A stretch of DNA of 64,000 nt from an uncultured Nitrospiraceae bacterium (GTDB taxonomy: Bacteria; Nitrospirota; Thermodesulfovibrionia; Thermodesulfovibrionales; Dissulfurispiraceae), in assembly GCA_963705105.1 (NCBI GenBank), contig CAVPIW010000006.1, positions 384,001 to 448,000 of the forward strand. Direction: 5' to 3'. Made by a program: the position numbers and the translations under genes. How positions within the stretch are numbered: the stretch's first letter is position 1; every line of letters starts with the position of its first letter. The notes under the pieces are model-generated. The model was not told the origin of the DNA. It did no database searches and saw only the letters and a list, made by a program, of their open reading frames with translations. Below, piece by piece: positions 1 to 25,262 of this stretch.

Positions 1-1250
1 GCAACTTCCGCGATGAGATCTGCGCCGTGAGGGCCGATAATGTGGGCTCCGAGGATCTGGTCCGTTTCTTTATGAACGATGATCTTCACCATCCCTTCGA
101 GCTCGCCCATGGCCTGAGCCATGCCGAGGGACTTGAGCGGAAAACGGCCGACTTTGACGGGATATGCCGCTCCTGCCTCCTCTTCGGACATTCCAACCGC
201 GGCATACTCCGGCAGGCTGAACACACAGCGGGGCACGACACGATAGTCCATTTTGCTGCCGAGCCCGAGCGCATGTTCGGCGGCGCAGATCCCCTCCGCA
301 AATGCCACATGGGCCAGCAGCCAGCCGCCGATCACGTCGCCGGCGGCATAGATCTCCGGATTGCCTGTCCGCATATGCCCGTCGACCACGATCCGGCCAC
401 GGTCCATGGCCACACCGAGTTCTTCCAGACCGATCCCCTCAGTGTTGAAGCGCCTGCCGACGGCCAGCAGTATAGTGTCCGGCGCAAGCTGCGTCCCGTC
501 CGAAAGCCGCACGGCAAAGCCTTCCCCAGTTTCGTCCACGGACTCGACCGTTACGCTGCACTGGACCTTTATCTTGCGCCTCGTCAGGAGAGTGAGCAGA
601 TATGCGGCGATCTCGCTGTCTTCGGAAGGCAGAATGCGATCGAGAGCCTCGATGAGTGTCACCTGGCTGCCCAGTTCCCGGAAAATGGCGGCCATCTCCA
701 CACCTACGGCGCCTGCCCCGACGACCAGGAGCTGTCCGGGGATATACGAGATATCGAGCATCTGGTCGGCCAGGAAGATCCGGGGGGTCGTAGGAAATAC
801 CGGAAGACCGGCAGGATGCGAGCCCGTGCAGACGACAACCTTTGACGCCTTGACGAGGGCCGTTTCTCCACCCCGTTTGATTTCGATTGCGCCGGTCCCG
901 GACAGTCGGCCACGACCCTCGACCAGTTCGATGCGGTGAGCCTGAAACAGCCTTTCGATACCTTTTCGCAGCCCCGTCACCACCCGCCGCTTTCTGGCGA
1001 TGATGGCTTCAATATCCGGAACCGCATCAACGGCCTTGAAACCGTATTCCTGCGCTCGCCGCAGAGCCCGGCCCGCTTCGGCAGAGGCGCGCACCGTCTT
1101 GGTCGGGATGCAGCCCCAGTTAAGGCACACCCCGCCCACATACTTTTCCTCAATGACCGCAACTCTGGCGCCCAACTGAGCCGCCCGGACGGCGCCCTGG
1201 TAACCGGCCGGCCCGCCTCCCAGAAAGGCAATGTCGTATTTTTCTTGCAT
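1..1250 (-). CDS. lpdA: dihydrolipoamide dehydrogenase (3' end runs off the window)
   Basis: Hand translation from ATG 1250: MQEKYDIAFLGGGPAGY (FAD GxGxxG), GGVCLNWGCIPTK redox disulfide, VVGAGAVGVE NAD site, YAAGDVIGG. Missing from the ORF track because no stop lies in the window. Confidence 0.92.
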   Translation of the reverse strand, partial: MQEKYDIAFLGGGPAGYQGAVRAAQLGARVAVIEEKYVGGVCLNWGCIPTKTVRASAEAGRALRRAQEYGFKAVDAVPDIEAIIARKRRVVTGLRKGIERLFQAHRIELVEGRGRLSGTGAIEIKRGGETALVKASKVVVCTGSHPAGLPVFPTTPRIFLADQMLDISYIPGQLLVVGAGAVGVEMAAIFRELGSQVTLIEALDRILPSEDSEIAAYLLTLLTRRKIKVQCSVTVESVDETGEGFAVRLSDGTQLAPDTILLAVGRRFNTEGIGLEELGVAMDRGRIVVDGHMRTGNPEIYAAGDVIGGWLLAHVAFAEGICAAEHALGLGSKMDYRVVPRCVFSLPEYAAVGMSEEEAGAAYPVKVGRFPLKSLGMAQAMGELEGMVKIIVHKETDQILGAHIIGPHGADLIAEV

Positions 1251-1267
1251 GAGCCTCCCTCCCTTCA

Positions 1268-1478
1268 CCTTATCGTTGCAGCACACTGCCAGGAAAGGCG
1301 GGGCTGGGGTGAATGCGCCGAAAACCTTGCTGCGGCGACACCTGTATCAAAACAAAAGACGAACTATAAGCCTATGGTTGATGACACAAAGAGTGGAGTC
1401 CTGAAACACGAAGCTGATGATGCGTATCGTCGCCTTCGGCAAGGCTTTGAGGCGCTTCGCCCCGCCTTTTCATGCAAC
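1268..1478 (+). repeat. palindromic intergenic element (family A), copy 1
   Basis: CCTTATCGTTGCA...AAAGGCGGGG...GCGCCGAAAACCTTG...CAAGGCTTTGAGGCGC...CCCCGCCTTTT...TGCAAC; nearly identical to 29466-29676. Confidence 0.9.
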
Positions 1479-1588
1479 CAGGGTTTACCCTTACAGGAAG
1501 GGTTCTTCCCCCCGGAGGGACGGAGAGAGGTAAAATTTTTTTTCTCCGGACACCCCGTGCTCTCCCGGGTGAAGCGCTTTGTTTCGTA

Positions 1589-2035
1589 CTAATGTCCCGC
1601 CTCAGATTCCCCGCTCTCGATCACAATGGTCGGCTCAATGACAAGGTCGCACTTGAGCGATTGGTTGATCGTCGAATACTTCAGCGACAGGTCAAGGGCA
1701 CGCTGGACGACTTCCCGCGGTTTGTTCTTCACCACAAGTTTGGGATAGAGAGTCACCCTCTTGAACCAGGACGTCTTGTCGATGAATTCCTCGACCTCGC
1801 CCTCGGCGTCGCACACGAAAGAGATCATGTCGATCTTGAACCGCTCCACGGCCCAGATGACCATCATATGGTAGCACATATTGGAAGCCGCCATGAAGGC
1901 ATCTTCAGGGGTGAGTATATCGGGTAGGCCGTGAAGATCGGGAGGAGCCGAAAAACCCATCTCGACACCGTTCTGGCACCATGTGTGCCCGAGGTGTTCA
2001 CCTCGCCATTCCACTTTATTCCTGTAAACCGGCAT
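1589..2035 (-). CDS. osmC: OsmC/Ohr family protein
   Basis: FSAPPDLHG, TPEDAFMAASNMC motif and typical length. The second Cys position reads KYST. Confidence 0.8.
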   Translation of the reverse strand: MPVYRNKVEWRGEHLGHTWCQNGVEMGFSAPPDLHGLPDILTPEDAFMAASNMCYHMMVIWAVERFKIDMISFVCDAEGEVEEFIDKTSWFKRVTLYPKLVVKNKPREVVQRALDLSLKYSTINQSLKCDLVIEPTIVIESGESEAGH

Positions 2036-2047
2036 CTGCTTCTCCTT

Positions 2048-2458
2048 TTACTCGCTCAGAATGTCATCGACCGCCCTGGCGATTTCTTCCGCCACCACCT
2101 GTGCGGCGGCCTTCTCCTCCGGCCGAAGGTTGCGCAGGCTGGTCGGCGGGTCAATCCCGTGCTTTTTCAAGATTTCGGGAATGACCAGGGAGCGGGCGGG
2201 TTTACCCGAAAGCTTTTCGGTGCCCTTTTGGGCGCAGAGCTTTTCGCAGCCGTCCACTGTGATGGTTGGGTAGTTGGCGGCGAACTCGCGCTCTTCCTTG
2301 CCTCCTGCGATAAACAGGGGGAGGCAGATAGTCACCGTTTCGCCGGGCCTCAACTCTTCCAGCACCTGGCGGCATGCCAGGCGAGACAGCGTCCCCCCGG
2401 GAATCGCCTCGCCGCTGCACGAAACGATACCGACCTTGAGAACTTCGAGAGTCATCAT
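2048..2458 (-). CDS. DGC-domain putative zinc-binding protein
   Basis: SCSG, TICLP, ITVDGCEKLCA motifs. Confidence 0.85.
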   Translation of the reverse strand: MMTLEVLKVGIVSCSGEAIPGGTLSRLACRQVLEELRPGETVTICLPLFIAGGKEEREFAANYPTITVDGCEKLCAQKGTEKLSGKPARSLVIPEILKKHGIDPPTSLRNLRPEEKAAAQVVAEEIARAVDDILSE

Positions 2459-2871
2459 GCATCCTCCCCGGCAGCCAGATCGTCCACGACGCTCGCCAGT
2501 TCATCGGCCGCCAACGCAGCAAGTCGGTGTCCGACGTCATCCAGCTCGGCGATGCCGCCTGGTTTGAGATCCTTGTGCGCTTTGTAAAAGTTGATTGCCT
2601 GGTACGTTCTGGCGGCTTTCACGCCGTGAGCCTCGACGCTCTTTCGGGCACAGCTCTTGGGACAACCGTCAATGGTCATCACGGGGTTGTCCGAGATCAG
2701 GCGTATCGCCTCGGGGTCCTCGATCACCAGGAGCGGCAGGCAGGTGGTGGCTACAACGCCGGGTCTTACCCGGTCCACCAGCTCATAGGTCGTCTCCCTG
2801 GCCAGCGCCCCGTAGACTTTGCCGATGCCGCTGCAGGGGAGGACCACGACCTTCTTGGTTATTCCGGTCAT
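2455..2871 (-). CDS. DGC-domain putative zinc-binding protein (paralog)
   Basis: PCSG, TTCLP, TIDGCPKSCA motifs; 4-bp overlaps with both neighbours. Confidence 0.85.
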   Translation of the reverse strand: MTGITKKVVVLPCSGIGKVYGALARETTYELVDRVRPGVVATTCLPLLVIEDPEAIRLISDNPVMTIDGCPKSCARKSVEAHGVKAARTYQAINFYKAHKDLKPGGIAELDDVGHRLAALAADELASVVDDLAAGEDA

Positions 2872-3318
2872 TTTTTCTTCATCTCCTCGGCGATTTTTTC
2901 CTTCATCAGTTCGAGATAGTCTTCCGCCTGAAGCAGGTTTCTGCCGTCGGTCCCCAAATCGTCAAGCCGGATTTTATAAATCCAGCCGGCGCCGTAAGGA
3001 TCTTCGTTGATCAGATAGGGGCTTGATTCCAGTTCCTGGTTGACGTCGACCACCCTGCCCGAGACGGGCGCCAGAATCCCGAAAGTAGCCTTGATAGTCT
3101 CGATTTTTCCAAGTTCCTGGCCCTGTTTCACGTCCGTTTCTTTTTCGGCTGTTTCCAGAAAAGCGACGTCGCCTCTGGCCTTCTGGAGAAAATCTGCTCA
3201 CACCGACCGTCGCTACATTGTCCTCAACCCTGGCCCAGAAATCATCACGGCTGTAAAAATAGCCCTGTTTCACCCGGAAGACGAATTTGTCGTATGTCGT
3301 TTCAAGAAAATCACTCAT
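2868..3318 (-). pseudogene. gcvH: glycine cleavage H / lipoyl-carrier protein with a +1 frameshift near 3195
   Basis: The N-half MSDFLETTYDKF...YSRDDFWARVEDNVATVGVS joins DFLQKARGDVAFLE...GKIETIKA...INEDPYGAGW if one A is removed. Lipoyl Lys lies in ETIK. Confidence 0.85.
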
Positions 3319-3332
3319 AGACCCGCTCCTTT

Positions 3333-3674
3333 TCACGCTGTCAGGATCTTCCCGACTTCCTTCAGGATCTTGCTCACCTGGATGCTTCCCGCAAACCTCG
3401 GTTCGCCGTCGATGACGACAAGAGGAGGAGGGAATTTCCGGCTCACCAGCAGACGCCCGGCCTCCGTTTCCTTTTCTTCCGGCGAGTTGCTCAAGTCGAT
3501 CAGCTCCGTGGCGGTCTTCCCCGGATAGCGCGCCTCAAGTGTCTCTTTTAGCTCGGTGCACTTTTGCAGAAGGGCCTTTGCGTATTCCGGGCCGCGTGGC
3601 GTGGAACTGCAGGTGCAGCCGCCCCCAACGCCGGGCAGATCAAGGATTTTCACTGTAATGAAGTTCTTGGCCAT
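3333..3674 (-). CDS. small thioredoxin-fold-like hypothetical protein with N-terminal CxC motif
   Basis: GGGCTCSS and PPLVVIDGEPRFAG (cis-Pro strand-like); RBS GGAGG upstream. Confidence 0.6.
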   Translation of the reverse strand: MAKNFITVKILDLPGVGGGCTCSSTPRGPEYAKALLQKCTELKETLEARYPGKTATELIDLSNSPEEKETEAGRLLVSRKFPPPLVVIDGEPRFAGSIQVSKILKEVGKILTA

Positions 3675-3703
3675 GTGCTTTCCTCCTTTCAAACCCTTCG
3701 GAG

Positions 3704-8142: not shown

Positions 8143-8847
8143 TCATTCGATGAAGGGGAGCAGGGTGGTCGCTCCCAGGTACAGTCCCGCGCCGACAAGG
8201 ATTGCCCCGCTGAGACGCTTTGAATAGAGCGAGAAGTTCTTCAACCCTCTTGACGCGACGATGCTCTCCGTTATACCGACAGAGAGCCCTGCCGCAAAAA
8301 TAATGGCGCAATGGGCGACGGCGTAGACGAAAAGCAGGGATGCCCCGTAGAGGATGTCGCCCTCCGTCGAGACATAGGCGAGGATGACGGCGAGCACCGG
8401 CGTGGCGCAGGGAGACGAGACGGTCCCCGTCAAAAGCCCGAGCAGGAATGCTCCGATCAATCCTCTTGCTTTGACCTCCCTCGTTTTTTGAAAGGGCAGG
8501 GGCACTGCGATCAGGCCTGTCATGTGAAGTCCCATGAGAACAACGAGGATCGCGAGGCCGATATACAGCCATGTACCGGTCATGGCAAGGAACTGTCCCA
8601 TGAATGACGCTGCGGCACCCAGGGCCGTGAAGGTCAGGGAGAGGCCTGCGACGAAAACGAGCGAGAACAGGGCGGCCCTTTTCCGGTCTCCGCCGGAGTA
8701 GCCACCGACGTACCCGATGATGAGAGGAATGGCGGCCAGCACACAGGGGCTTGCGGCAGAGAGGAGCCCTCCCAGGAAGACCGCCGCGATCGCCAGTCCC
8801 TGCTGGTTCTGAATAAGGGCCTGCACGCTGCCGAGCAGGTTGTCCAT
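8143..8847 (-). CDS. ccdA: CcdA-family transmembrane thiol-disulfide electron transporter
   Basis: SPCVLAAIP and SSPCATPVL conserved Cys motifs; about 6 TM segments. Confidence 0.9.
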   Translation of the reverse strand: MDNLLGSVQALIQNQQGLAIAAVFLGGLLSAASPCVLAAIPLIIGYVGGYSGGDRKRAALFSLVFVAGLSLTFTALGAAASFMGQFLAMTGTWLYIGLAILVVLMGLHMTGLIAVPLPFQKTREVKARGLIGAFLLGLLTGTVSSPCATPVLAVILAYVSTEGDILYGASLLFVYAVAHCAIIFAAGLSVGITESIVASRGLKNFSLYSKRLSGAILVGAGLYLGATTLLPFIE

Positions 8848-9227
8848 CACAGCCCGGCCTTTTTCAGCACAGGGACGATGTCCTCGTAGGGATAATAACC
8901 AAAATGGCGGTGGAACTCCTTGCCCTTCTTATCGAGGAAAACCTGTGTCGGTATCATGAAGACCTGGTATTTCCTGCCCGCTTCCCTGTCCACCTTCACA
9001 TCGATAAAAAGGACGTCCAGTTTTCCCTGATACTGCTTCGAGAGCTTGTCCATCACCGGCTTCATCTGCTCGCAGGGAATGCAGCCCACTGACCCGAGCT
9101 CGAGCATCACCATCCTGCCTTCCTTCTGGGCCTTCTTCAGGGTGTCATCGAGCTTCGCCGCTTCCCCCTGCGTTATCAGGAGCAGGACGCAAAACGCCAT
9201 GAAGAGGCCCGACAGCAATCTGTTCAT
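8847..9227 (-). CDS. exported thioredoxin-family protein
   Basis: Signal peptide, GCIPC, IPTQVF. Confidence 0.85.
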   Translation of the reverse strand: MNRLLSGLFMAFCVLLLITQGEAAKLDDTLKKAQKEGRMVMLELGSVGCIPCEQMKPVMDKLSKQYQGKLDVLFIDVKVDREAGRKYQVFMIPTQVFLDKKGKEFHRHFGYYPYEDIVPVLKKAGL

Positions 9228-9928
9228 TCCTTTATGCCACCTTTCTTCGCTTTTTCCGCGGCTTTTTTTCTGATCATTTCCATCTTCTCCAAGAAGGCAT
9301 TTTTTGTCCGCCGCTCTTCCTCGTCCTTCGGTTCGAACACGGGGTTCGTCACCCTCCAGGTGATCCGCGCACTGACCGGACCCTCAGGGTATGCCCCCAC
9401 GTCGTACAATGAATAGTCATCAAAAGGGGTGGCGGTCTCCTGGTAGCAGGACCAGACGGCCTTCCGGAGGATGTCGGGAGTTCCTTTGTTCAGGAGGTCC
9501 ACGACCTGCAGGATCTGATGCCGGAATCTCTCGACAAACTCCTCCGGCAGGTTGAAGAGATAGGGAGTCGGCGCAGAGGTTCCGACTATTTTTTTCCTTT
9601 TATCGATACCGTTTTTGACGAGGGAGATGATGGCCTCGCCCGTCGAGTGCCCCGGCGATTCCGGGCCTGTCACGATGAGATAACGGATGTTGGGGTTGCC
9701 GATGATGTTGCAGATCATCTTTTCGACGCCTATGTTTTCCGTCTGTATCGTGCCCGAAAGGGCCGCCCCCGATTCCACGCCCACCCTGACAAGCTCCTCG
9801 ATATCCTTCGGGATTTTGTCGTAGTCATAGATGAGCACGACGGCGACGGCGACGGGCGAAAAGTCGTTTCCTCTAAGATAATGGCCTTCTTCGGGGGGAT
9901 AGTCTGCGACCGGTTCGATTTTGAGCAT
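9224..9928 (-). CDS. mtrA: MtrA-like (tetrahydromethanopterin S-methyltransferase subunit A domain) soluble corrinoid protein
   Basis: YPPEEGHYLRGN..SPVAV, TENIGVEKMICNIIGNPNIRYLIVTGPESPGHSTGE, VERFRHQI; no C-terminal TM anchor. Confidence 0.85.
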   Translation of the reverse strand: MLKIEPVADYPPEEGHYLRGNDFSPVAVAVVLIYDYDKIPKDIEELVRVGVESGAALSGTIQTENIGVEKMICNIIGNPNIRYLIVTGPESPGHSTGEAIISLVKNGIDKRKKIVGTSAPTPYLFNLPEEFVERFRHQILQVVDLLNKGTPDILRKAVWSCYQETATPFDDYSLYDVGAYPEGPVSARITWRVTNPVFEPKDEEERRTKNAFLEKMEMIRKKAAEKAKKGGIKE

Positions 9929-9943: not shown

Positions 9944-11020
9944 TCACAGGGGTTTTGAATTGCTTACCCGGCAATACTGAATAGTGAAGTATTTTTTCTG
10001 GAAATAAAGCGCCACGTTGACGAGGCCGATCAGGACCGGCACCTCCACGAGGGGTCCGATGACGGCTGCGAAGGCCGCCCCGGAATGGATGCCGAACACG
10101 GCCACGGCGACGGCGATGGCGAGCTCGAAGTTGTTGCTTGCCGCTGTGAAGGAGAGGGTGGCCGATTTTTCGTAATCCGTCTTCAGCTTGTAACTCATAT
10201 AGAAGGAGACGAGGAACATGACGACGAAATAGATGAGAAGAGGTATGGCGATGCGAACGACATCCAGTGGCAGCTTTACGATGTAGTTGCCCTTGAGGGA
10301 AAACATGACGACGATCGTGAAAAGGAGGAAGAGGAGCGTCAGAGGGCTGATCCTGGGAATGAAGACCCGGTCGTACCACTGACGGTCTTTGATCCGGATG
10401 AGGCTGAAACGGGTGATCATGCCCGCGATGAAGGGGATGCCGAGATAGATGAAGACGCTCTCGGCGATCTGGCCTATGGTGATATTGACAATCGTCCCCT
10501 TGAGTCCGAACCAGGAGGGCAGGACGGTGATGAATATATAGGCGTAGACGGAATAGAAGAGCACCTGGAATATGGAGTTGAAGGCGACGAGCCCCGCCGC
10601 GTATTCGGGGTCTCCGCAGGCAAGGTCGTTCCAGACGATGACCATGGCGATGCAACGCGCCAGACCGATCATGATGAGACCTACCATATACTCGGGGTGA
10701 TCGGGCAGGAAGACGACGGCGAGAATAAACATCAATATCGGCCCGATGACCCAGTTCTGGAGCAGGGACAGTCCGAGCACCTTCTTGTTCCTGAAGACTT
10801 CACCCAGCTCCTCGTACTTCACCTTGGCGAGGGGCGGGTACATCATGAGGATCAGGCCGAGCGCGATGGGGATGTTCGTCGTGCCCACCTGAAAGCGGTT
10901 CCAGAAGTCGGCGATCTGGGGATAGAGGTATCCCGAGCCGACGCCGACGGCCATGGCGAGAAATATCCAAAGCGTGAGAAACCTGTCGAGGAAGGAGAGT
11001 CTCTTAACTGTTGCCGCCAT
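9944..11020 (-). CDS. acr3: Acr3 arsenite efflux transporter
   Basis: [40 protein letters not shown]. Confidence 0.95.
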
Positions 11021-11429
11021 TTGTTGCGCTCCTTTGCACACTGTTCTTAGAACAGGAACCGACGTTATCGACAGATTGAGATGGCGCCGCGCAGACCTTC
11101 CCTTGCGGTTTGCTCATGATGAACCCACGCAGTCTTTCGTTGTCTTTCAGGATAACGTCGCCGGCGAGGCGTTCAAGGACAGAAAGCATGAGGAACCTCT
11201 TGAAGAGATCCGATTCGTCAATGCGGTAGTGGATCCACCTTCCCTGTTTCCTATCTATGATGAGACCCGCATCTTTGAGAACACTCAGATGAAAGGATAC
11301 TTTCGGCTGCACCAGGTCGAGGGCGGTGAATATGTCACAGACACAGAGCTCCCCGCATTCAAGCAGCTTGAGGATTCTCAGGCGCGTCTCGTCCGAGAGG
11401 GCCTTCAGTATGCTCAGTACCTGCTGCAT
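11004..11429 (-). CDS. arsR: ArsR/SmtB metalloregulator
   Basis: [19 protein letters not shown] As-binding box, VSFHLSVL. Confidence 0.92.
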
Positions 11430-11433
11430 GACC

Positions 11434-11673
11434 TCAGGCCTCGGATTGAATGAGGGTTTTCACCTTCTCGATGGTCGGAAGGGGCTTGCCGCTGTGTTTC
11501 AGCTTTCCGTTCACCACGAGTCCCGGCGTCGACATGGTGTACTTCATGATTTCTTTGAGGTCCGTTATCTTTTCGATATTCGCGTCGATGCCGAGGTCTT
11601 TGACGGCTTGGAGGGCTAATTCCTCCATCTTGTGGCAGTTTGCGCATCCAGGTCCCAAAACCTTGATTTCCAT
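11434..11673 (-). CDS. small redox-active disulfide protein (MTH895-like thioredoxin)
   Basis: MEIKVLGPGCANC...STPGLVVNG. Confidence 0.9.
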   Translation of the reverse strand: MEIKVLGPGCANCHKMEELALQAVKDLGIDANIEKITDLKEIMKYTMSTPGLVVNGKLKHSGKPLPTIEKVKTLIQSEA

Positions 11674-11768: not shown

Positions 11769-12719
11769 CTACAGTATAGCGTTGAACAGATATCCCACAG
11801 ATATGATCGTGATGGTCATGATACCGACAAAGACGGCCAGAAGGGGCACCTTCAGCACCTTTCTCAGGATGATCATCTCCGGGAGTGAAAGGGCCGTCAC
11901 TGCCATCATGAAGGCCAGGACCGTCCCCATGCTCATGCCTTTTCCCATGAGGGCGTACACGATGGGGATCACTCCTGCCGCGTTCGAGTAGAGCGGCACG
12001 CCGAGGGCAACCGCAATAGGCACGGCAAAGGGATTCTGCGGTCCCGCGTAGCGGGTCAGGAAATCCTGGGGCACATAGCCGTGGATGAAGCCCCCGATGC
12101 CGATGGCGATGACGATGAAGAGCCAGACCCGCTTGAGGATATCGGCGGTATTCAGCTTTGCATACTCGATCCTCTCACGGAAGGCCGGTTTCTCGATTTC
12201 CTGTTCCTGTCCCGATTTGAATTCATAGACGTATTCCTCGACCCACTTTTCGAGTTTGAGCTTGCCGATGACGAAGCCCCCGAAAACGGCGACGAGGAGG
12301 CCGGTGCCGATATAGATGGCAGTGACCTTCCACCCGAAGAGCCCCCAGAGGAGCACAATGGCCACCTCATTCACCATCGGAGAGGATATGAGGAATGACA
12401 GCGTCACGCCGAGGGGAACACCCGCCTCGACAAACCCGATGAAGAGGGGGACTGCCGAGCAGGAACAGAAAGGGGTGACGATGCCAAGCAGGGCAGCGAG
12501 GATGTTACCGATAAACTGTTTTTTATGAGAGAGGATCTTTTTCGTCCTCTCCGGGGGGAAATAGCTCCTGATTATGGAGACGCAGAATATGATGACCGAC
12601 AGGAGAAGGAAAATCTTCAGGGTGTCATAGATGAAGAAATCAAGGGCATCTCCGAGGGGTGAGCCCTTTTGAAGGTTCAGGAGGTCGAAGGTGACATAGG
12701 CTGCGAATTCTTTCAGCAC
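11769..12719 (-). CDS. arsP: ArsP/DUF318 family permease
   Basis: TPFCSCSAVP, FLISSP, GVPLYSNAAG, ALSLPE motifs; GTG start. Confidence 0.88.
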   Translation of the reverse strand: MLKEFAAYVTFDLLNLQKGSPLGDALDFFIYDTLKIFLLLSVIIFCVSIIRSYFPPERTKKILSHKKQFIGNILAALLGIVTPFCSCSAVPLFIGFVEAGVPLGVTLSFLISSPMVNEVAIVLLWGLFGWKVTAIYIGTGLLVAVFGGFVIGKLKLEKWVEEYVYEFKSGQEQEIEKPAFRERIEYAKLNTADILKRVWLFIVIAIGIGGFIHGYVPQDFLTRYAGPQNPFAVPIAVALGVPLYSNAAGVIPIVYALMGKGMSMGTVLAFMMAVTALSLPEMIILRKVLKVPLLAVFVGIMTITIISVGYLFNAIL

Positions 12720-12735
12720 GCAGGCAACTCCTAAA

Positions 12736-12782
12736 ATATAAAATCTTGTTTATATATTAAGGCATCTCATTCCTGATGTCAA
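12736..12782 (-). promoter_or_regulatory. sigma70 promoter with adjacent palindromic operator for the ars cluster
   Basis: TTGACA(12782-12777)-17 bp-TAATAT(12759-12754); palindrome ATATAAA-N6-TTTATAT at 12736-12755. Confidence 0.7.
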
Positions 12783-13028: not shown

Positions 13029-14006
13029 TTACAGAAAGTACTGTGAAATGTACCGAAAAGCGAGATAGACGATTATGCACCCGAGGACGAGCTTTATATA
13101 CCGCTGCGGTATGAACTTCTGGCAGCGGGCGCCGAGGTATATGCCGACGGTGCCGCCGATGCCGAAGAGAAATCCCAGGAGCCAGTCAGGGCTTGTCGCC
13201 ATGCCTGCCTTGGCGGGGATGACGCTGTAGAAGAACACCCCGGCGATGGATGTGATGAAGGTGCCCATGAGGGCGGCGCCGGCGATCGTGTAAACGGGCA
13301 GGTGAAAGACGGCGACGCAGAAGGGCGCTATGATCGCCCCTCCGCCGATGCCGTATGTCCCGCCGATGATGCCCACGACAAAGGCGAGAATGAACATGCC
13401 GATGGTGCTGTAGGAGAACCGCTCGCCCCAGAACTCATACTCGATCCTCGTGAGGGACCACGAGACCGTCTTCACAAGCGCCTCGGGCGGCAACCCTGAC
13501 GCCACCCGCGAGTTTTGCTGAGCTTTAATCTCGTCGGCCCGCTCTTTGAACTTCTTTTCAAGCGCCTTGTTCGCCTGGTTCTGGGCCCGCGCTTTCCCCG
13601 TGAATTCATAGAGGAGCCTGATGCCGATGTAGAGGAGGACGGAGCCGACGAAGAACTTGAACGTCCTGGGGTCGGGCAGATAGGTCACCCTGAGCCAATA
13701 GCCGATGAAGACGCCGGGCAGTGTGCCGACGATCACGACCCATGTGAGCGGCCAGGCCATGCGGCCTTCCTTGAGATAGCGGTAAACGCCGCTCGGGATG
13801 GCAACGATATTGAAGATGAAGTTAGTGCCGCTGACCGATGGACTCGTGTAATTCAGATAGCTCACCTGGAACGGCAGAAGAAGGAAAGCTCCCGACACGC
13901 CGCCCATGGAGGTGAAAAATGACACGACCATCGCCACAAGAGGGGGGATGAGGACGCTCGTCGTTACTCCGGACACGGGGAAGGCATAGGTCAGAAAATC
14001 AAACAT
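13029..14006 (-). CDS. TauE/SafE (TSUP) family transporter
   Basis: SMGGVSGAFLLLP and GTYGIGGGAIIAP repeats; multi-TM. Confidence 0.9.
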   Translation of the reverse strand: MFDFLTYAFPVSGVTTSVLIPPLVAMVVSFFTSMGGVSGAFLLLPFQVSYLNYTSPSVSGTNFIFNIVAIPSGVYRYLKEGRMAWPLTWVVIVGTLPGVFIGYWLRVTYLPDPRTFKFFVGSVLLYIGIRLLYEFTGKARAQNQANKALEKKFKERADEIKAQQNSRVASGLPPEALVKTVSWSLTRIEYEFWGERFSYSTIGMFILAFVVGIIGGTYGIGGGAIIAPFCVAVFHLPVYTIAGAALMGTFITSIAGVFFYSVIPAKAGMATSPDWLLGFLFGIGGTVGIYLGARCQKFIPQRYIKLVLGCIIVYLAFRYISQYFL

Positions 14007-14061
14007 GGTATCCTCCTTTTGCTGACGCCAGCACGGTCACAGAAGCGTTGACATCTTGATA

Positions 14062-14121
14062 ATCACGATTATAAAATAAATCGTGATAGTTCATTATATC
14101 AGCGGTCTGGCGCGATGTCAA
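14062..14121 (-). promoter_or_regulatory. consensus sigma70 promoter of the TSUP gene plus a 26-bp TunR-type operator
   Basis: TTGACA(14121-14116)-17-TATAAT(14098-14093); palindrome ATCACGATT-N8-AATCGTGAT at 14062-14087, just downstream of the -10. Confidence 0.8.
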
Positions 14122-14238
14122 GATTTCTCGTCCCCGTATTGCATTCGGTGAAACTTGTATGCACAATTACAGGAAGGATCATTGGTGTCCAAAATAATGT
14201 GTCACGAGGACAGGGCATGATTTCTTCGCATAATAAAC

Positions 14239-14442
14239 CCTTATCACCGCAATGAGATCTCAGGAAAGACGGGGCGAATGCGCCGAAAAGCATCGGTGCT
14301 GCGAAACCGCTGCCTTCCCGTACAGACCATTGCAGACCAACGATCGATGACAGGTCGAATGAATTCCTCATACACCAATAATAAACAATCATGCTCGCTA
14401 TCAGCGAGGCTTTGAGGCGTTTTGCACCGTCTTTTCGTGCAA
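14239..14442 (+). repeat. family A element, copy 3 (divergent)
   Basis: CCTTATC...AAAGACGGGG...GCGCCGAAAA...GGCTTTGAGGCG...CCGTCTTTT. Confidence 0.75.
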
Positions 14443-14556
14443 GGCAACCGTGAATTATGCTTCAGAAACCAGACCCTATCCTCGTTTTCAAAGTCTGACT
14501 GCAAAATATTTCGGACAGGGGCGGGGAAGGATATAGCCGGATTTGAGGCAGGATAG

Positions 14557-15606
14557 ATGAAGCGCCAACATAGGACGGATCTGCCGGATAACGCGCGGTG
14601 TCTGGACGCCGGCGAGCTGAGAACGCTGGAACAGTCATTCCGGGAATGGGCTGAAGCGAGTCCCCGCCGGGACGTCCTCCTGTCACGGAAGCGCACATTG
14701 CTCATTTTCCTCCTGATCCGTCACACCGGGGCGAAGCTGAATGAGGTGTTGTCTCTCAACCCGCTCCGCGACATAGACCATAAGCGCTTCTGCATCTTCT
14801 TCGGCACACCGGATGACACCACGGGCGAGCAACGCGCACGAGAAGTCCCCATATCCCGTTCGTTTTCCTCCGAGATCCGCTCAATGCTCGATGACGGTGC
14901 TTTCAGAGAGACTGTAAAGGACGGGCTGGACACAGACCCCGGTTTTATCAGGCTGAAATTTTACGAGCGCGCGCAGGCCTGCGGATTCCCCAAGCGTTTG
15001 GGGGGGCCTGAAATGATCCGCAAGGCCCGGGCTGTGGAGTTGGCGGAGAACAACATGCCTTTACCGGCGGTGCAGATGCTGCTGGGTCATTCGACGCCCG
15101 GTTTGACGTCTTCCTATGTTACATTCTCCGAAGCCGAGATCACGCAGGTAACGCGACATTTCATAGAAAAGGAGTCCTCCCGGCGAACGAGCGCGCGAAA
15201 CTCCTTTTTCGGAAAAGTACAATCAATACAGCAGGGCGACATACAGACACGAGTCGTTCTTTCTACCGTCGAAGGTCACCGGGTAACCACCGTAATTACC
15301 AATGACAGTGTTCAGCGGCTCGGCCTGAGGGTGGGAAAGCTGATGACCGCTGAGGTGAAGGCCCCCTGGGTCATCCTGCAGAAAAGCGACAGCAGACCCC
15401 TGTGCACCGCGGAAAACGTGTTCAGCGGCGTTGTTGAACGGGTGACCAGGGGTGAAGTCAACACGGAGTACGTTGTCAGAATCTCCGACGGAACAAGGCT
15501 CTGTTCTGTTGTCGGCACCGAAAGTGCCCGGAGCGTGGACCTCGACAAGGGTGATACCGCCTGGGCATTGTTCAACTGCCATGCCGTCGTCCTTCATGTG
15601 GATTAA
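14557..15606 (+). CDS. tunR: TunR-family regulator: degenerate tyrosine-recombinase-like domain plus two TOBE domains
   Basis: HTGAKLNEVL, EMIRK, LLGHS..TSSY, followed by TSARN and two TOBE (molybdate/tungstate-binding) repeats. Confidence 0.85.
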   Translation: MKRQHRTDLPDNARCLDAGELRTLEQSFREWAEASPRRDVLLSRKRTLLIFLLIRHTGAKLNEVLSLNPLRDIDHKRFCIFFGTPDDTTGEQRAREVPISRSFSSEIRSMLDDGAFRETVKDGLDTDPGFIRLKFYERAQACGFPKRLGGPEMIRKARAVELAENNMPLPAVQMLLGHSTPGLTSSYVTFSEAEITQVTRHFIEKESSRRTSARNSFFGKVQSIQQGDIQTRVVLSTVEGHRVTTVITNDSVQRLGLRVGKLMTAEVKAPWVILQKSDSRPLCTAENVFSGVVERVTRGEVNTEYVVRISDGTRLCSVVGTESARSVDLDKGDTAWALFNCHAVVLHVD

Positions 15607-15613
15607 CCGTGCA

Positions 15614-15803
15614 GTTGCACAGAAAGGCGGGGCGAAGCGCTCTGAAAGACAGTGTGAGTGTCAGTGTGAGTGCCGGGGAAAAGGCTCACTTTTTTCGACC
15701 ATTGGCTTGAAAGGTTGTCTTCAGTGAAGGGGAAGGTGTCGCCGCATCAAGGTTTTCGGCGCATACACCCCGCCTTACCGGAGACCCTATTGCAACGATA
15801 AGG
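15614..15803 (-). repeat. family A element, copy 4 (hexamer-repeat subtype)
   Basis: GTTGCACAGAAAGGCGGGG...AGTGTGAGTGTCAGTGTG...TGCAACGATAAGG. Confidence 0.85.
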
Positions 15804-15844
15804 TTAACACTGTGGTATCAGGTCAACGCTCTCCTGATAAAAAC

Positions 15845-17020
15845 ATGCCGGATGATCGCCCGGGACGGGACGCCCCGTCTCTGCCAGACCTATTTGCCTG
15901 TTTTGTCCGGCTCGGGCTGACCGCCTTCGGCGGCCCCGCCATGCTGGCAAACATCAGGCAGGTCGTTGTTCAAAAACATAGCTGGATCGAAGAGCCATCT
16001 TTTCAGCGGGGCGTGGCCCTCTGTCAATTGATTCCCGGTGCGACGGTCATGCAGATGGCCGCATACGTCGGCTTTCAGCTCGCCGGGATCCGGGGCGCCC
16101 TTACGGCATTTGCCGGTTTTGGCCTCCCCGCTTTCCTCCTGATGCTTCTCCTGTCTGCTCTCTACGTATCGGCGCGGGATCTCTGGTGGAGCATTTCACT
16201 CTTTAAGGGGCTCCAGGTCCTTGTCGTCGCCATCGTCGCCCATGCAGCATGGCTGTTCGGCAACAGTATCGTGAAAGGCGCCGGGGCAGGTGTCATAGCC
16301 GTATGTTCCTCTCTGCTGCTCGGCGCGGGGCTGAATCCGTTCACAGTGATTCTGCTGTCCGCGGGCGCCGGCATGTTGTTGTTCCGCTATCAGGTTTCAT
16401 CGGGATCGCCACCGCCGGGTGCCTTGTCAGCCCGGACCCGGTCAGGGACTCTCATCCTCATTGCGCCGTTTGTATGGGCGGGACTCCTCTATCTGTTCAG
16501 CGACGAGTTTTGCCGTCTTGCCATGCTCATGATGAAGATCGACCTGTTCGCATTCGGCGGGGGCTTCGGTTCACTGCCGCTGATGTACCATGAGGTGGTC
16601 GAGGTCAGAGGGTGGCTGGACGGCAAGACGCTGATGGACGGCATCGCTCTCGGCCAGATGACCCCCGGACCTATCGTCATCACCGCCACTTTTGTCGGAT
16701 ACATATTGCACCAAACAGCCGGAGCCGCCGTTGCAACGGTGAGCGTGTTCCTGCCCTCCTTCGTCATCGTTGTCTTTGCTGCTCCCTTCTTCGACCGGAT
16801 CAGCTCTTCGGCGACCGTCCAGAGGGCATTGAGAGGGATCCTCGCATCTTTCGTCGGGCTCCTCGTCTTCGTGACGCTGAAGTTCACGGGAGCCGTCATG
16901 TGGGATATTGCAGGGGTTTTTCTTCTGGTTGCAGCTCTCATAGCGCTCGTACGGAAAGTCGATTTGCTGCTCATCATCACCATAGGTGCCTGTCTGTCGG
17001 TTGTCCTGTTCAGGCGTTGA
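15845..17020 (+). CDS. chrA: chromate efflux transporter (CHR family, two-domain)
   Basis: LGLTAFGGP, CQLIPG, FAFGGGFG, GQMTPGP, FLPSF. Confidence 0.92.
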   Translation: MPDDRPGRDAPSLPDLFACFVRLGLTAFGGPAMLANIRQVVVQKHSWIEEPSFQRGVALCQLIPGATVMQMAAYVGFQLAGIRGALTAFAGFGLPAFLLMLLLSALYVSARDLWWSISLFKGLQVLVVAIVAHAAWLFGNSIVKGAGAGVIAVCSSLLLGAGLNPFTVILLSAGAGMLLFRYQVSSGSPPPGALSARTRSGTLILIAPFVWAGLLYLFSDEFCRLAMLMMKIDLFAFGGGFGSLPLMYHEVVEVRGWLDGKTLMDGIALGQMTPGPIVITATFVGYILHQTAGAAVATVSVFLPSFVIVVFAAPFFDRISSSATVQRALRGILASFVGLLVFVTLKFTGAVMWDIAGVFLLVAALIALVRKVDLLLIITIGACLSVVLFRR

Positions 17021-17692: not shown

Positions 17693-17914
17693 ATGGTGAC
17701 TTTTGACAGGATTACATTTGATCCGGGAATCATGGGAGGCAGGGCCTGCATTAGAGGAATGCGTATTCCTGTCTCGGTTATTGTCGGACAGATCGCTCAC
17801 GGGGCGACTGTAGAGGAGATTTTGGGGGACTATCCGGACATTGAGCCTGACGACATCCGCCAGGCCCTCGAATATGCAGCCTGGCTCGCCCAGGAAGAAG
17901 TCTATTCGGCGTAA
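17693..17914 (+). CDS. DUF433 antitoxin-like protein
   Basis: RITFDPGIMGGRACIRGMRIPV...EILGDYP...ALEYAA. Confidence 0.9.
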   Translation: MVTFDRITFDPGIMGGRACIRGMRIPVSVIVGQIAHGATVEEILGDYPDIEPDDIRQALEYAAWLAQEEVYSA

Positions 17915-17915
17915 T

Positions 17916-18191
17916 GGGCCATAAGGTCTTCATACACAAAGAAGACGGCACGGACTCCGTTCAATACTTTAAACTCGAAGACGGCGCAGTCATGCTGGAG
18001 CCGGACGTAAGGAAGTACTTCCCCACTTCTGACGCGGTTAATAAGGCCCTCAGATTATTGATCGAGATTGTTCCGGCAAGGAAGCGTGTATCCGGCCATC
18101 GGAAATGACACGATCATTTATGCACCGGAGCGACATGAATCTGCTCCTGAGCGTATCGGGAAACTTAATTCGCAATTCAAGACCTGGCACC
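17916..18191 (+). repeat. ~275-bp direct repeat (3' half of a BrnA-like antitoxin plus downstream DNA), copy 1
   Basis: Near-identical to 23604-23888; encodes VMLEPDVRKYFPTSDAVNKALR. Confidence 0.9.
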
Positions 18192-18229
18192 TTGTGCCCC
18201 TTTTTTGCAAGTGAAGGGGGGTTAACTTC

Positions 18230-19294
18230 ATGGAATACAATATCGAGACAGAGGAAGACTTACGGCAACTAATCGGCCAATACGAATCTGTACGGTTGGA
18301 CTTCAAGGCGTCAGCCCTTCTCGAACAGCCGACAGAGCGAATCATCAAGCAGCTTACCGAGGATGTCTCCGCCTTTGCGAACACGGAAGGAGGTATCGTC
18401 GTCATCGGCCTGAGTGAGGGGAAAAGGGGCAAGAAAAGCGTTGCTGTTGAAATAGATGAAGGCGTTGACCCCATTAGTGTCCAGCCAGAGTGGCTTGAAC
18501 AAATCATCGCCTCGAATATTAGCCCCCCTATTCCCGGCCTGACAGTTCGCCCCATCCCCCTGTCCGGTAATAAAGCGGGACGAGTAGCCTACGTGGTAAC
18601 AGTCCCCAAAGGTGTTACTGCATATCAGGCAAGACATTCTCTACTATATTACGGGCGTACTGAGTTCACGGCAGTGCCTCTCCACGATAATGTCATCCGT
18701 CTTCTTATGGCGCGTGGCCGTCTTCCTCAAGTCCGCGTAGAAATCTGTAACGTGCAGATCTTGACAGCAGACCAGGAATGGGAAGAAAGACAGGCCAAGC
18801 TCGCAGAGACAGCAAAGAGGAGAAGCGCGGGAGAAGTTATGATCTACCGTCGTGGTGTGCCGTCCTATAAGGACCTTACTGCTGCAAAACGGGACTATGA
18901 TTGGCTTTCTTTTCGCCTTGCTCTCATCAATACTGGTGACGTCACCATACGTGACCTTGCATTGTCTGTAGCCTTTACAGTAAGTTCTGAGGTCTATCGT
19001 GTCAACATGCCCCTGTCTGCCACTGAGGTTAGGTTCCGCTTTGCTGAGGGTCTGCGGAAGAGTTCATTTGGAGGTGAAGAGCACTCGCCACCCGAAAGGA
19101 AGCTTTTTCCTGGCGATCGAGTTGTCTTTCCAGACCAAGACTGGATCATTCATATGCAGGCAGGAACGCCAGTGGAAAAGCATGGGGTACGTCTGCACTG
19201 GACTGCCTATCTCGACGACACTCCACCGTGTTTTGGCGATATTGACGTGACCGAGCATTTCCAGCGAGACGCAAAAAAGCCGCAGGCTGAATAA
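18230..19294 (+). CDS. Schlafen/AlbA_2-domain protein with beta-rich C-terminal domain
   Basis: ESVRLDFKAS, DVSAFANTEGGIVVIGLSE, YYGRT motifs. Confidence 0.8.
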   Translation: MEYNIETEEDLRQLIGQYESVRLDFKASALLEQPTERIIKQLTEDVSAFANTEGGIVVIGLSEGKRGKKSVAVEIDEGVDPISVQPEWLEQIIASNISPPIPGLTVRPIPLSGNKAGRVAYVVTVPKGVTAYQARHSLLYYGRTEFTAVPLHDNVIRLLMARGRLPQVRVEICNVQILTADQEWEERQAKLAETAKRRSAGEVMIYRRGVPSYKDLTAAKRDYDWLSFRLALINTGDVTIRDLALSVAFTVSSEVYRVNMPLSATEVRFRFAEGLRKSSFGGEEHSPPERKLFPGDRVVFPDQDWIIHMQAGTPVEKHGVRLHWTAYLDDTPPCFGDIDVTEHFQRDAKKPQAE

Positions 19295-19475
19295 ACTGAA
19301 CTCGCTTCGCTCGATGCGACTCCACGGGGTATTTACCCCGTGGGTCGGCAAGGGTCTTCGCTTCGCTCCGACGCCCTGCACCCCACAATGCACCAAATTG
19401 AGTCAGGAGCAAGACCGACAGCGGCATCAATAATCCAAAAAGGCCACCCAGGTTGCTGGAGAGTGTGAGAAGATT

Positions 19476-19889
19476 TTGAGTTCTCCCGTGTTCAATGTGA
19501 ACTTTGGGCAGTTCTTTGAATTCAACTGCGTAGACTGTGGCACGCACATAAAAAGGCGTGTTGGAAGCTTTTCTAAAGAACAGGGGGTAGTTTGCCCAAA
19601 TTCGAAATGCCGCGCAACGTATGACGTTGAAACCGAAGGTGGCAAGGAAGTTCAGTTCAGTCTCAGACAGTCGAAATACACATGCCTGCCCCCCTGTGGC
19701 ACAGAGAATTGGGTTGGAACCCACCGTGTCCTGCCCGGAAACGTATTCGAGTGCGTCCAGTGCGGGGGAAAGGCGATGGTTGTGCAGCATATGAAACTTG
19801 TCATGCAAGCCGATGAGAAGCCAGCGTCTGGCGTGCTAAAACAACAGGGGAGTAGCGGATCTTGTGAACCTCCCACAAGTAGTACTTAA
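19476..19889 (+). CDS. Cys-rich zinc-ribbon hypothetical protein (possibly a 3' fragment)
   Basis: CVDC, CPNSKC, CLPPC, CVQC; weak TTG start. Confidence 0.5.
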   Translation: MSSPVFNVNFGQFFEFNCVDCGTHIKRRVGSFSKEQGVVCPNSKCRATYDVETEGGKEVQFSLRQSKYTCLPPCGTENWVGTHRVLPGNVFECVQCGGKAMVVQHMKLVMQADEKPASGVLKQQGSSGSCEPPTSST

Positions 19890-19922
19890 AACGTAGTCAC
19901 TCTCAAGAAGAAAACAATCTTT

Positions 19923-20163
19923 GAGTTCGTCGGAACCCCATGGGATCGATAGTTTGAAAAAGATGCTTTATCGGGAAAGCTTGACTCATTCGCCGAAACA
20001 GCGATCAAAGCGTTTAAGTCCGGTCGCTGCTCCGAAATTGAAACATTTTGCCTCGACGGAGTTTTGGGAACTCTATGGGTCTTTGCCACAATCTGTCCAG
20101 GACCTCGCAGACGAATGTTACTCATTACTAAGAAATGATCCTCATCAGCCCTTCAATGGGTGA
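19923..20163 (+). pseudogene. degraded antitoxin plus truncated RelE/ParE-like toxin
   Basis: WDR*FEKDALSGKLD (internal TAG); toxin MKHFASTEFW...LLRNDPH ends early. Confidence 0.6.
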
Positions 20164-20271
20164 CTGGCGCAGCGCGAGATGCTGATGCCGAATGCAATGA
20201 AAACACGGGTGCAGTGAGGAGCAGAGAGCCGCTTTGTTGATGGTAGAAAAAGGTTTCTACCAAATGAGGTT

Positions 20272-20732
20272 TTATTGACGCGTGCCTCGGTGCCTCAGGT
20301 TATTAAATGGACCAACATTCCTTAAGCCAAAGTCGGGTTGATAGGCTCCGTTTCGAGCATAAGGTGCTCCATTTCCTAGCTCTGAATAATACAAGTGTCC
20401 CATCTCACTGCTTGTGACGTTATATCCAAAGGTTGACATGCCAGAATAGTTATATAAATCATATGACCATGTACCATCTACAGTTTTGGGTAGCCGCCAA
20501 CCGCTAATATTCTGTTCATTAATGTTGACTGTAAAGAGTTTACCCAATTTATTTGTTCCTGAAATGTGACCTGTGAAGACGTATAGTCATACCATGTAAT
20601 GTTTAGGTCAGAATCATAAATCAGCCGATTACCTATCGAATCCGTTCCAGTAATTATCAATGAGGCAAGCGACTGAAATGCAAAACCGAAAACTATCAGA
20701 ATTGTAACAATAAATAGCCAAATTCTTTTCAT
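20272..20732 (-). pseudogene. secreted DUF1566/Lcl-like protein, frameshifted and truncated
   Basis: Signal peptide and LIYDSDLNITW in one frame; GWRLP...SEMGHLYYSELGN...GPFNNL in another; AT-rich. Confidence 0.65.
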
Positions 20733-20840
20733 TACTTCATTCTCTCTTTCTCAAGTAATGCATCGCCGGAGGGCTCGCTGACTTCAGCCTCCGCGTTCTT
20801 AAGGTCAGTATAGCACACTCAGAGGTCAAGAGGAAGATGC

Positions 20841-22240: not shown

Positions 22241-22316
22241 GATGCCTGCAACTGAGGGGGAGAAGACTTTCAACTTCGATGCCCGAAAAATCTTTGTTCA
22301 TCGGAAAGAGGAGAAG

Positions 22317-22806
22317 TCAGGGCATGCGCCACTGCTTCCAGTAACACATGCGTATGTGACACCTTGGCCGGTGATGCATCTCGACGGCATCGTTGTACTT
22401 CAAGCCGCTACCGAAGTAGTTGATCCCCCCTTGGAGATAGGTACGAATCTCCCCGTGTCGGCGAGCTATCGAGGTACAGCCATCTCTGAATTGTGCTCTT
22501 GAGTCATCCATCGCATGACGCGCAGATCTCTCCGGATAAGGCTTGTCCCGGCATAGACCGAAAACGTGTGAACTTTCCGTGCACAACCGCCGTATTTACC
22601 CTATCCCCTGAACCTGCGTGTTTTGTTGTGTTGTGCCCACTCGCCCGGAGACTGAGCCTTGTATGCGGTTTCTGTTCCCCGGATCACGTCCGGGGTAGGC
22701 TCTTGCCTTCGGCTCGCACTTGTGATAGCATCCATTAGTATGAACACTCTCAGATTCTCTTACAGGGGACTTGCACCCCATAAGCTCACGCCCGTGCCGG
22801 GCATAC
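22317..22806 (-). mobile_element. group IIC intron remnant (5' RNA domain I plus maturase fragment)
   Basis: 5' end GTATGCCCGGCACGGGCGTGA...GGGGTGCAAGTCCCC; GTAAATACGGCGGTTGTGC; maturase-like GINYFG...IRMCYWKQW. Confidence 0.75.
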
Positions 22807-22867
22807 ACCTGACGCTTCAAGGGATCGACCGGAACTGCAGTGCTCCCCTTGAGCTTGGGCGTTCGGC
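22807..22867 (+). other. integron attC recombination site, interrupted at R'' by the intron
   Basis: AC-CTGAC-GCTTCAAGGG...CCCTTGAGC-TTGGGC-GTTCGGC; the L boxes pair with one extra base. Confidence 0.7.
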
Positions 22868-22902
22868 ATGTGACCACGATACCGATCATCGAGAGAGGTG
22901 AC

Positions 22903-23172
22903 ATGGGAAGATATGAGAAATTGTTGTTCCAGGTTCTGAGGGGCACATCAGATGAGAATATCGCCTTTGACGATCTGCGCAGGCTGCTGTTAAGGTTGGG
23001 TTTTGAAGAACGCAGGCGGGGAAGTCATCATACCTTCAGAAAAGCAGGGATTGAGGAAAAGATCAACCTGCAACGGGATGATGGTAAAGCAAAGGCGTAT
23101 CAGGTACGCCAGGTGCGGGCAGTGATGTTAAAATATAAGCTCGGAGGTGAACTCGAAGATGCAGAAGTATGA
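22903..23172 (+). CDS. hicA: HicA toxin
   Basis: LGFEERRRGSHHTF, KAKAYQVRQV. Confidence 0.9.
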   Translation: MGRYEKLLFQVLRGTSDENIAFDDLRRLLLRLGFEERRRGSHHTFRKAGIEEKINLQRDDGKAKAYQVRQVRAVMLKYKLGGELEDAEV

Positions 23173-23371: not shown

Positions 23372-23385
23372 ATGTGAATGGCTGA

Positions 23386-23440: not shown

Positions 23441-23444
23441 ACAT

Positions 23445-25250: not shown

Positions 25251-25262
25251 GGAGGTGAGCCG

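Follow-up and report, generated by a model that had tools for sequence, protein, structure and literature searches.

A 64,000-nucleotide stretch of DNA from an uncultured Nitrospiraceae bacterium (hereafter the window) contains a real, conserved arsenic-resistance (ars) operon gene for a predicted cobamide protein of Wood–Ljungdahl anaerobes, a soluble relative of the methanogen subunit MtrA for which an arsenic-related role is probable. The gene is apparently undescribed: the literature searched holds no description of a link between MtrA-like genes and ars operons, with the proviso that neighbourhood figures or supplementary tables of subscription papers could show the gene. The link is not described in the accessible portions of a preprint on hgcAB and ArsR in ND132, of a methylator survey and of papers on paddy demethylation, arsenic is unmentioned in the available text of a paper on Asgard MtrA-like proteins, and bacterial MtrA homologues are mentioned without function or context in the accessible part of the report on the M. 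fervidus MtrA structure (PMC4915002).

The sequence-only reading had placed an MtrA-like open reading frame 15 bp past the acr3 stop codon, overlapping the downstream thioredoxin gene by 4 bp, and all of this was found as claimed (Table 1); a ribosome-binding site, GAGGGAGG, lies ahead of the gene. The MtrA signature it had pointed out is indeed present, as NPNIRYLIVTGPESPGH, with three residues rather than two between its halves. The Pfam MtrA profile (PF04208) matches the product with 134 bits (cut-off 25) and NCBIfam NF002126 with 174.6 bits (cut-off 161); the equivalogs for true MtrA (TIGR01111, 125 bits vs 249) and MtxA (NF010654, 100 bits vs 279) are missed, and among Pfam and NCBIfam profiles there was no match to CdhD, to HgcA or to the SAM-dependent methyltransferase fold of ArsM. 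As also claimed, the protein lacks a membrane anchor, its highest 19-residue hydropathy being 0.85 and its C-terminus forming a charged helix, and there is no other mtr gene as far as the two subunits searched, MtrA and MtrH, are concerned: apart from this protein, the source genome (99.4% complete) yielded no MtrA match, and MtrH was not found. With its low TIGR01111 score, and with no C-terminal anchor, MtrH or mtr operon, the protein is not the MtrA subunit of an Mtr complex. Its closest homologues come from Nitrospirota. PADLOC returned no match, a plasmid search gave just four distant matches, none reaching 80% coverage, and all clusters returned by an ESM Atlas search are named MtrA.

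Table 1. Features of the ars unit, with positions in the window.
Feature	Position	Strand	Basis
CcdA/DsbD-type membrane protein, distant ArsG homologue	8143..8850	(-)	PF02683 86.6 bits; NF040495 ArsG 47 bits, under cut-off 200
Thioredoxin (CIPC), signal-peptide-like N-terminus	8847..9227	(-)	Pfam; hydropathy 1.86
Soluble MtrA-fold predicted cobamide protein	9224..9928	(-)	234 aa ORF
acr3 arsenite efflux permease	9944..11020	(-)	TIGR00832 466 bits, cut-off 282.8; ATG at 11020, GTG at 11041 also open
ArsR/SmtB repressor with ELCVCD motif	11004..11429	(-)	Profile matches
MTH895/ArsE-family small thioredoxin-like protein	11434..11673	(-)	TIGR00412 85 bits, cut-off 62
ArsP-family permease, first gene of the unit	11769..12719	(-)	PF03773 279 bits
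Sigma-70-type promoter TTGACA-17-TAATAT and overlapping imperfect inverted repeat ATATAAA-N6-TTTATAT	12735..12782	(-)	Ahead of arsP

The unit reads arsP, a gene for an arsE-type thioredoxin, arsR, acr3, the MtrA-like gene, thioredoxin and ccdA, followed by more co-oriented genes, and the successive gaps from arsP to ccdA are 95 bp, 4 bp, an overlap, 15 bp, -4 bp and -4 bp. These short gaps and the candidate promoter and operator would be compatible with an arsenic-induced co-transcription under ArsR control. The ELCVCD motif of ArsR is one that we take to be of the As(III)-binding type. The inverted repeat ahead of arsP is a candidate ArsR operator, a similar repeat being present ahead of arsP in five of eight other Nitrospirota-type loci (judged by eye, in AT-rich sequence and without a chance control). 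The thioredoxin beside the MtrA-like gene looks exported, and with CcdA and ArsE it resembles an outward ArsEFG-type cross-membrane relay, which would provide no feed for a cytoplasmic cobamide; an ArsF-family gene is near 10 of the best 80 of 176 relatives. Neither arsM nor arsC occurs in the 64-kb window, as had been stated, yet both are found elsewhere in the genome, ArsM at 885.4 kb of contig C6 (323 bits, cut-off 263) and an ArsC-like protein at 36 kb of contig C5 (148.7 bits, below the 174 cut-off); since relatives, moreover, often have these genes beside their own copy, their absence from the window carries no weight. Where a C-terminal Cys for As binding is conserved, the ArsM gene (G000:C6:885.4-886.2 kb; L144:7360-8202) has an in-frame TGA, which probably encodes selenocysteine, SelA being present; the gene is directly followed by one for a B12-binding radical SAM protein.

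On one side of the unit (13029-17020) lie a TauE permease, whose promoter is a perfect TTGACA-17-TATAAT (14121-14093), an integrase-like/TOBE regulator and a chromate transporter, which suggests that the ars unit and these flanks form a wider oxyanion island. Beyond them, 17693-24559 looks like an insertion-rich stretch, given its small toxin–antitoxin-like genes, its AlbA_2 protein (18230-19294) and, at 20879-22168, a transposase-like ORF that has no Pfam match. Downstream of the ars genes is a complete lipoyl module on the same strand (window 1-3692, minus strand, continuing at G000:C6:382.1-384.0 kb, L147), with DsrC/TusE, GcvH, two DGC-domain proteins, OsmC, dihydrolipoyl dehydrogenase, lipoyl synthase and lipoate ligase. 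Its GcvH-like lipoyl-carrier gene (2868-3336, minus strand) is split over two frames, apparently by a single-base frameshift near 3196, and is either a pseudogene or an assembly error. The series gcvH-DGC-DGC-osmC-arsE is met again close to the MtrA-like gene at a few loci of Acidobacteriota and Planctomycetota. Molybdopterin oxidoreductase operons flank the island on both sides (24942-29340, plus strand; L147:9743-13977, minus strand), and the one such enzyme tested did not match the NCBIfam ArrA profile (122 vs 1600 bits).

The association with arsenic genes is by no means peculiar to this genome. A protein search returned 2808 matches, the best 120 of which have 60-93% identity and are mostly of ~230 aa, and a genome scan gave 176 relatives, of which the best 80, a set biased toward the query, were analysed. 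In 64 of these 80, a core ars gene (acr3, arsP, arsC-like, arsA, or arsM at >=150 bits by tblastn) is found within 5 kb, on the same strand in 63, and where both flanks extend for at least 3 kb the figure is 38 of 46. Genes found within 5 kb in the best 80 are arsR (53), acr3 (49), arsC (34), arsE (32), arsP (29), ccdA (24), arsM (22), thioredoxin (20) and hgcA (6); the directly adjacent gene is most often acr3 (16/80), with arsC adjacent in 15/80, and arsM or arsP is within 5 kb in 45 of the 64 ars-linked loci. The co-oriented placement of the gene with arsR, acr3, arsP, arsC and arsM is thus recurrent. An even draw of genomes from three other phyla, centres excluded, contained matches in 8 of 400, 3 of 300 and 15 of 300 genomes; counting one locus per genome (the second loci L122 and L126, both without ars genes, were left out), 12 of the 26 loci are ars-linked, or 9 of 13 with both flanks of at least 3 kb, and 14 of 26 (4 of 13) have no core ars gene. 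Two Nitrospirota loci outside the 26 (L127 and L128) have no ars gene either. Near 15 MtrA-domain proteins from other subfamilies taken as controls, no core ars gene was found. The co-location count that the sequence-only reading had proposed as a check therefore came out in its favour, and the ars context of the gene is far above chance.

A quick-mode tree places the family in a single clade of 125 rows (SH-aLRT 98), separate from methanogen MtrA. Its neighbour is a group of proteins fused to thymidylate-synthase-like domains (P0154, P0157, P0158, P0162, P0166 and P0168), the deep order being unsure owing to long branches. Linkage to ars genes is found in several deep branches, archaea among them, and ars-linked loci span ~15 phylum labels, some doubtful, plus archaea. 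The branch of the source protein has 35 rows, all but three of them with an ars gene, and in these three the flanks are short. The notion that the whole family is arsenic-linked is ruled out by a 15-row subclade of mostly orphan genes, for the most part without ars link, and by an alignment of long forms, for which 8 of 79 fetched metagenome loci have a core ars gene. These 410-505 aa proteins form a sister subclade (L193-L257, L116, L117, L120 and L121) with an extra Cys-rich helical domain and, in some cases, a TusA-like domain with a CC motif at the N-terminus; a cluster of ~126-aa small proteins resembling the Cys-rich domain is represented at 56 of the 79 loci. Genes for arsenic resistance are mostly absent from these loci, and the subclade looks like a cobamide system in its own right, as yet undescribed. 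The idea that its members are Fe–S-fused forms that give away the mechanism was discarded, their Cys-rich domain having no Pfam match and the proteins not being ars-linked. Among archaeal and Dehalococcoidia-like members (L124, L130-L133, L137 and L143), the gene is flanked by DUF169 (two of them Pfam-confirmed) and cupin genes. At six loci (L007, L008, L011, L020, L033 and L037), hgcAB is in or beside the same ars clusters, with an in-frame TGA in the HgcA match of L008; membership of an hgc unit is ruled out by this low frequency (6/80) and by the lack of HgcA in the source genome.

A clue to what the protein binds came from the 3D structure of M. fervidus MtrA (5LAA), in which, according to the available part of the report, the cobalamin contacts are His84, Glu54, Asn55, Thr53, Gly57, Asn64, Tyr18 and Val61 (PMC4915002). 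By pairwise alignment, these correspond in the same order to H94, E64, N65, T63, G67, N74, Y17 and M71, with His94 and Glu64 as the predicted axial pair. Across 112 family rows (matches with >=45% identity and >=120 residues), no variation is seen at His94, Thr63, Gly67, Asn74 or Gln62, while Glu64 is kept in 108 and Asn65 in 104. Structural modelling, another of the proposed checks, agrees with an MtrA fold: the AlphaFold model (pLDDT 89.4) has 5L8X and 5LAA as best Foldseek matches (target-normalised TM 0.90-0.94; E 3e-18 to 8e-18), and the predicted contact side chains are kept. Cobamide binding through His94 is thus predicted. Specific to the family are Cys73 (103 of 112 rows; Ala in 5LAA), a ~10-residue insertion after strand 1 (beta1-alpha1), APTPYLFN where MtrA has GAIPYIEN (consensus GAIP(F/Y)XEN) and a conserved C-terminal extension of ~70 aa. 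No As-binding site was located in the protein, and Cys73 adjoins nucleotide-tail residues, the upper corrin face being not clearly its place. Prediction of a complex between residues 1-200 and the organism's own AcsE scored 0.00 in two runs and was counted neither way.

Fusions provide hints about partners. The MtrA-like domain is fused in frame to ArsC in L057, L042 and P0167; in L040 the two genes are unfused and overlap, so that the fusion may merely reflect a lost stop codon. Elsewhere, the domain is joined to a 2x[4Fe-4S] ferredoxin (P0129) or to a CFeSP-type FeS module (P0132), and L119 and L124, both within ars operons, have C-terminal Cys motifs that by eye are like those of P0132. These fusions point to Fe–S centres rather than thiols as the electron input to the cobamide. 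Thiols are too weak a reductant for Co(I). The earlier proposal of a corrinoid-dependent arsenic route distinct from ArsM has therefore been retained in part. The predicted corrinoid protein, its recurrence in ars operons and its independence of ArsM stand, and methyl movement is plausible; its feed by the neighbouring thiol chain is unlikely and, as the main one, rejected in view of the signal-peptide-like N-terminus of the thioredoxin and the minority co-occurrence of thioredoxin and CcdA genes, and it sits poorly with the Fe–S fusions. As for ArsM, 31 of 50 ars-linked host genomes gave a match and 19 did not, so that the MtrA-like protein does not require it, let alone as an obligatory partner.

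The strongest clue to function, missed by the sequence-only reading, is the tie with the Wood–Ljungdahl pathway. Acetyl-CoA synthase AcsB (PF03598, E<=1e-30) is encoded in 82 of 90 host genomes, namely 46 of 50 chosen ars-linked hosts (47 if a single weak match is included) and 36 of another 40 taken irrespective of ars linkage; these counts omit 15 evenly drawn archaeal hosts, L044 and L047, and overstate independence, hosts being related inside phyla. Eight of the 90 hosts gave no strong match, and their genomes may be incomplete, as may most of the others. Backgrounds were obtained for Acidobacteriota (10 of 11 hosts vs 2 of 100 genomes), Planctomycetota (19 of 19 hosts vs 22 of 100, two of the 22 being hosts) and the source genome's own order, with Desulfobacterota and Chloroflexota outside; in the own order, AcsB is found in 103 of 111 genomes, which makes the test uninformative there. 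An AcsE-like match was found in 50 of 50 hosts, 48 at E<=1e-34, although the weaker ones may be MetH domains. The source genome carries a cooS/acsBCDE cluster, CobS and two RACo-type activators, and non-ars members of the family keep the tie too. The tie may simply go back to a strictly anaerobic life with plenty of cobamide and low-potential reductant, strict anaerobiosis being an uncontrolled confounder.

On these grounds, the odds lie slightly in favour of the protein transferring methyl groups to or from arsenic, in whichever direction. The mechanism that we prefer, tentatively, is that of a methyl-cobamide carrier loaded from the Wood–Ljungdahl methyl pool that would methylate trivalent arsenic without oxygen or ArsM. 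Arsenic would de-repress the unit via ArsR, and Co(I) would be generated by a low-potential ferredoxin or an ATP-dependent activator, a part perhaps played by the fused Fe–S domain in some relatives. The methyl group would be loaded by AcsE (from methyl-H4folate) or by methyl-CFeSP, replacing the absent MtrH, and methyl-Co(III) would then be attacked by As(III) or, more likely, by methylarsenite, a stronger nucleophile. The product would be a less toxic pentavalent or finally volatile methylarsenic, the remainder being exported by Acr3 and ArsP. Loading from the Wood–Ljungdahl pool is suggested by the lack of MtrH together with the almost constant presence of AcsE, its functional analogue, and arsenic is put forward as acceptor in view of the operon. 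Methylation is preferred over demethylation in that As(III) can attack without an added enzyme, whereas known corrinoid demethylation systems depend on a methyltransferase that activates the substrate, and the neighbourhood of the gene has no conserved one. In accord with this scenario, MtrA itself is a carrier that passes a methyl group from a methyl-pterin enzyme to a nucleophile, as stated in the accessible text of PMC4915002, and methylcobalamin-dependent methylation of arsenic is an MtaA side reaction in which trivalent arsenic accepts the methyl, as stated in the part available of a review (PMC13262295). However, HgcA takes its methyl from SAM and not from methyl-H4folate despite its homology to CFeSP (PMC11588087, available part), and so the methyl donor proposed here may be misassigned; anoxic methylation of arsenic can moreover increase toxicity, according to the accessible portion of a preprint (bioRxiv 10.64898/2026.08.27.747368), which counts against methylation.

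The main rival is the reverse reaction, in which the Co(I) form would take a methyl from methylarsenite or dimethylarsenite and pass it through AcsE into the Wood–Ljungdahl pathway, leaving As(III) for Acr3, as an anaerobic counterpart of ArsI. We consider it unlikely, even though it shares the anatomy and the Wood–Ljungdahl tie of the methylation reading. The methyl group of trivalent arsenic is, as a matter of general chemistry, a poor electrophile, and no activating methyltransferase of MtaB or MttB type is present among the neighbour clusters of at least three loci or in the source genome, which also lacks a match to HgcA. An MT1–corrinoid–MT2 arrangement was thus not found, the search having covered MtaB and MttB at neighbours and genome, with MtmB, MtbB and MtvB outside it. 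In its favour, acr3 is the top ars neighbour apart from arsR as well as the top adjacent gene, and arsM is found without arsP within 5 kb at 16 ars loci. DMAs(III) is demethylated by methylotrophic methanogens (PMC10579292, accessible text), and the anaerobic mechanism is called unresolved in the accessible part of bioRxiv 10.64898/2026.08.27.747368.

Rather unlikely, too, is a role in protecting the Wood–Ljungdahl pathway, in which a spare cobamide protein would trap arsenic species or stray methyls, or re-supply or repair cobamide, sparing CFeSP and acetyl-CoA synthase with no net (de)methylation of arsenic. Such a role would jointly cover the acsB-bearing hosts and the ars context, account for the missing dedicated partner enzyme and agree with the orphan and non-ars members that keep the Wood–Ljungdahl tie; against it, the neighbour clusters found in the locus maps show no clustering with acs genes, the ArsC and Fe–S fusions hint at turnover, and a precedent was not found in the literature searched. 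It is improbable that the gene is a mere passenger on stress islands, devoid of arsenic function, whose product carries methyl groups for some unrelated reaction of C1 compounds or of another metal(loid). Non-ars subclades and a sister clade fused to thymidylate-synthase-like domains do exist, and the same islands gather hgcAB, chromate transporters and lipoyl/OsmC modules, but a passenger is hard to reconcile with same-strand placement in 63 of 80 loci despite many gene orders, or with the spread of ars linkage over phyla, archaea and deep branches and the ArsC fusions. Lastly, the cobamide is quite improbably an electron carrier for arsenate reduction with or for ArsC, for arsine formation or for oxygen-free oxidation of MAs(III), a role consistent with the ArsC fusions, the adjacent arsC genes, the Fe–S fusions and a cited title naming hydride generation by cob(I)alamin, but at odds with the presence of arsC near 34 of 80 relatives only, its absence from the source operon, the possible origin of the fusions by stop codon loss and the fact that a redox function alone would not need AcsB or AcsE.

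The known systems that come closest resemble the MtrA-like protein in some respects and differ from it in others. MtrA of the MtrA-H methyl-H4MPT:CoM methyltransferase and its cytoplasmic homologues (PF04208; 5LAA, 5L8X and 8Q3V) have in common with the predicted structure the fold, the His–Glu axial pair and the cobalamin-contact side chains, but identity is ~35%, and the clade, the lack of anchor and MtrH, the family-specific elements and the ars context set the MtrA-like protein apart. HgcAB (NF040863/NF040864) is a model of a corrinoid protein that, with a ferredoxin, methylates a toxic metal, and hgcAB is often beside ars genes according to the available text of PMC7438021; HgcA differs in its unrelated CdhD-type cobalamin domain, Cys ligation, membrane-bound state and SAM donor (PMC11588087, accessible part). 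ArsM (NF008823), a SAM-dependent As(III) methyltransferase, catalyses the same net reaction as proposed here and is a neighbour in 22 of 80 loci, but the MtrA-like protein has neither homology to it nor its SAM-binding fold. The methylcobalamin side reaction of MtaA and the MtaB-linked demethylation of DMAs(III) in methanogens likewise exchange methyls between corrinoid and arsenic; in the source portions available, these are side activities of methanogenesis described as not arsenic-regulated, whereas the MtrA-like gene is dedicated, lies in an ArsR operon and has no MtaB. The core methionine synthase MesB is confined to Wood–Ljungdahl organisms and was proposed thereby to draw on methyls of the pathway, but it is a Zn acceptor enzyme rather than a corrinoid carrier and also clusters with acs genes (PMC7857596, accessible text).

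Anaerobes have to deal with methylarsenic without ArsI, which requires oxygen, and how they handle and demethylate trivalent methylarsenic is called open in the available parts of recent work, demethylation having so far been tied to side activities of methanogens (PMC10579292; bioRxiv 10.64898/2026.08.27.747368). The annotation 'tetrahydromethanopterin S-methyltransferase subunit A' is misleading for non-methanogen MtrA homologues. A small, soluble and highly conserved ars-operon gene of Wood–Ljungdahl bacteria and archaea lends itself to a single-protein test. It may be, with a little less than an even chance, that it encodes a dedicated, arsenic-inducible cobamide enzyme of Wood–Ljungdahl anaerobes joining central C1 metabolism to arsenic, the methylarsenite detoxifier so far missing for conditions without oxygen, either an ArsM-independent methylase or an anaerobic ArsI counterpart, and the second fold after HgcA in B12-dependent metal(loid) methyl chemistry. 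If arsenic (de)methylation is indeed its function, this would be the first for non-methanogen MtrA homologues, and surveys of arsM would overlook a route affecting arsenic speciation in paddy soil, sediment and groundwater.
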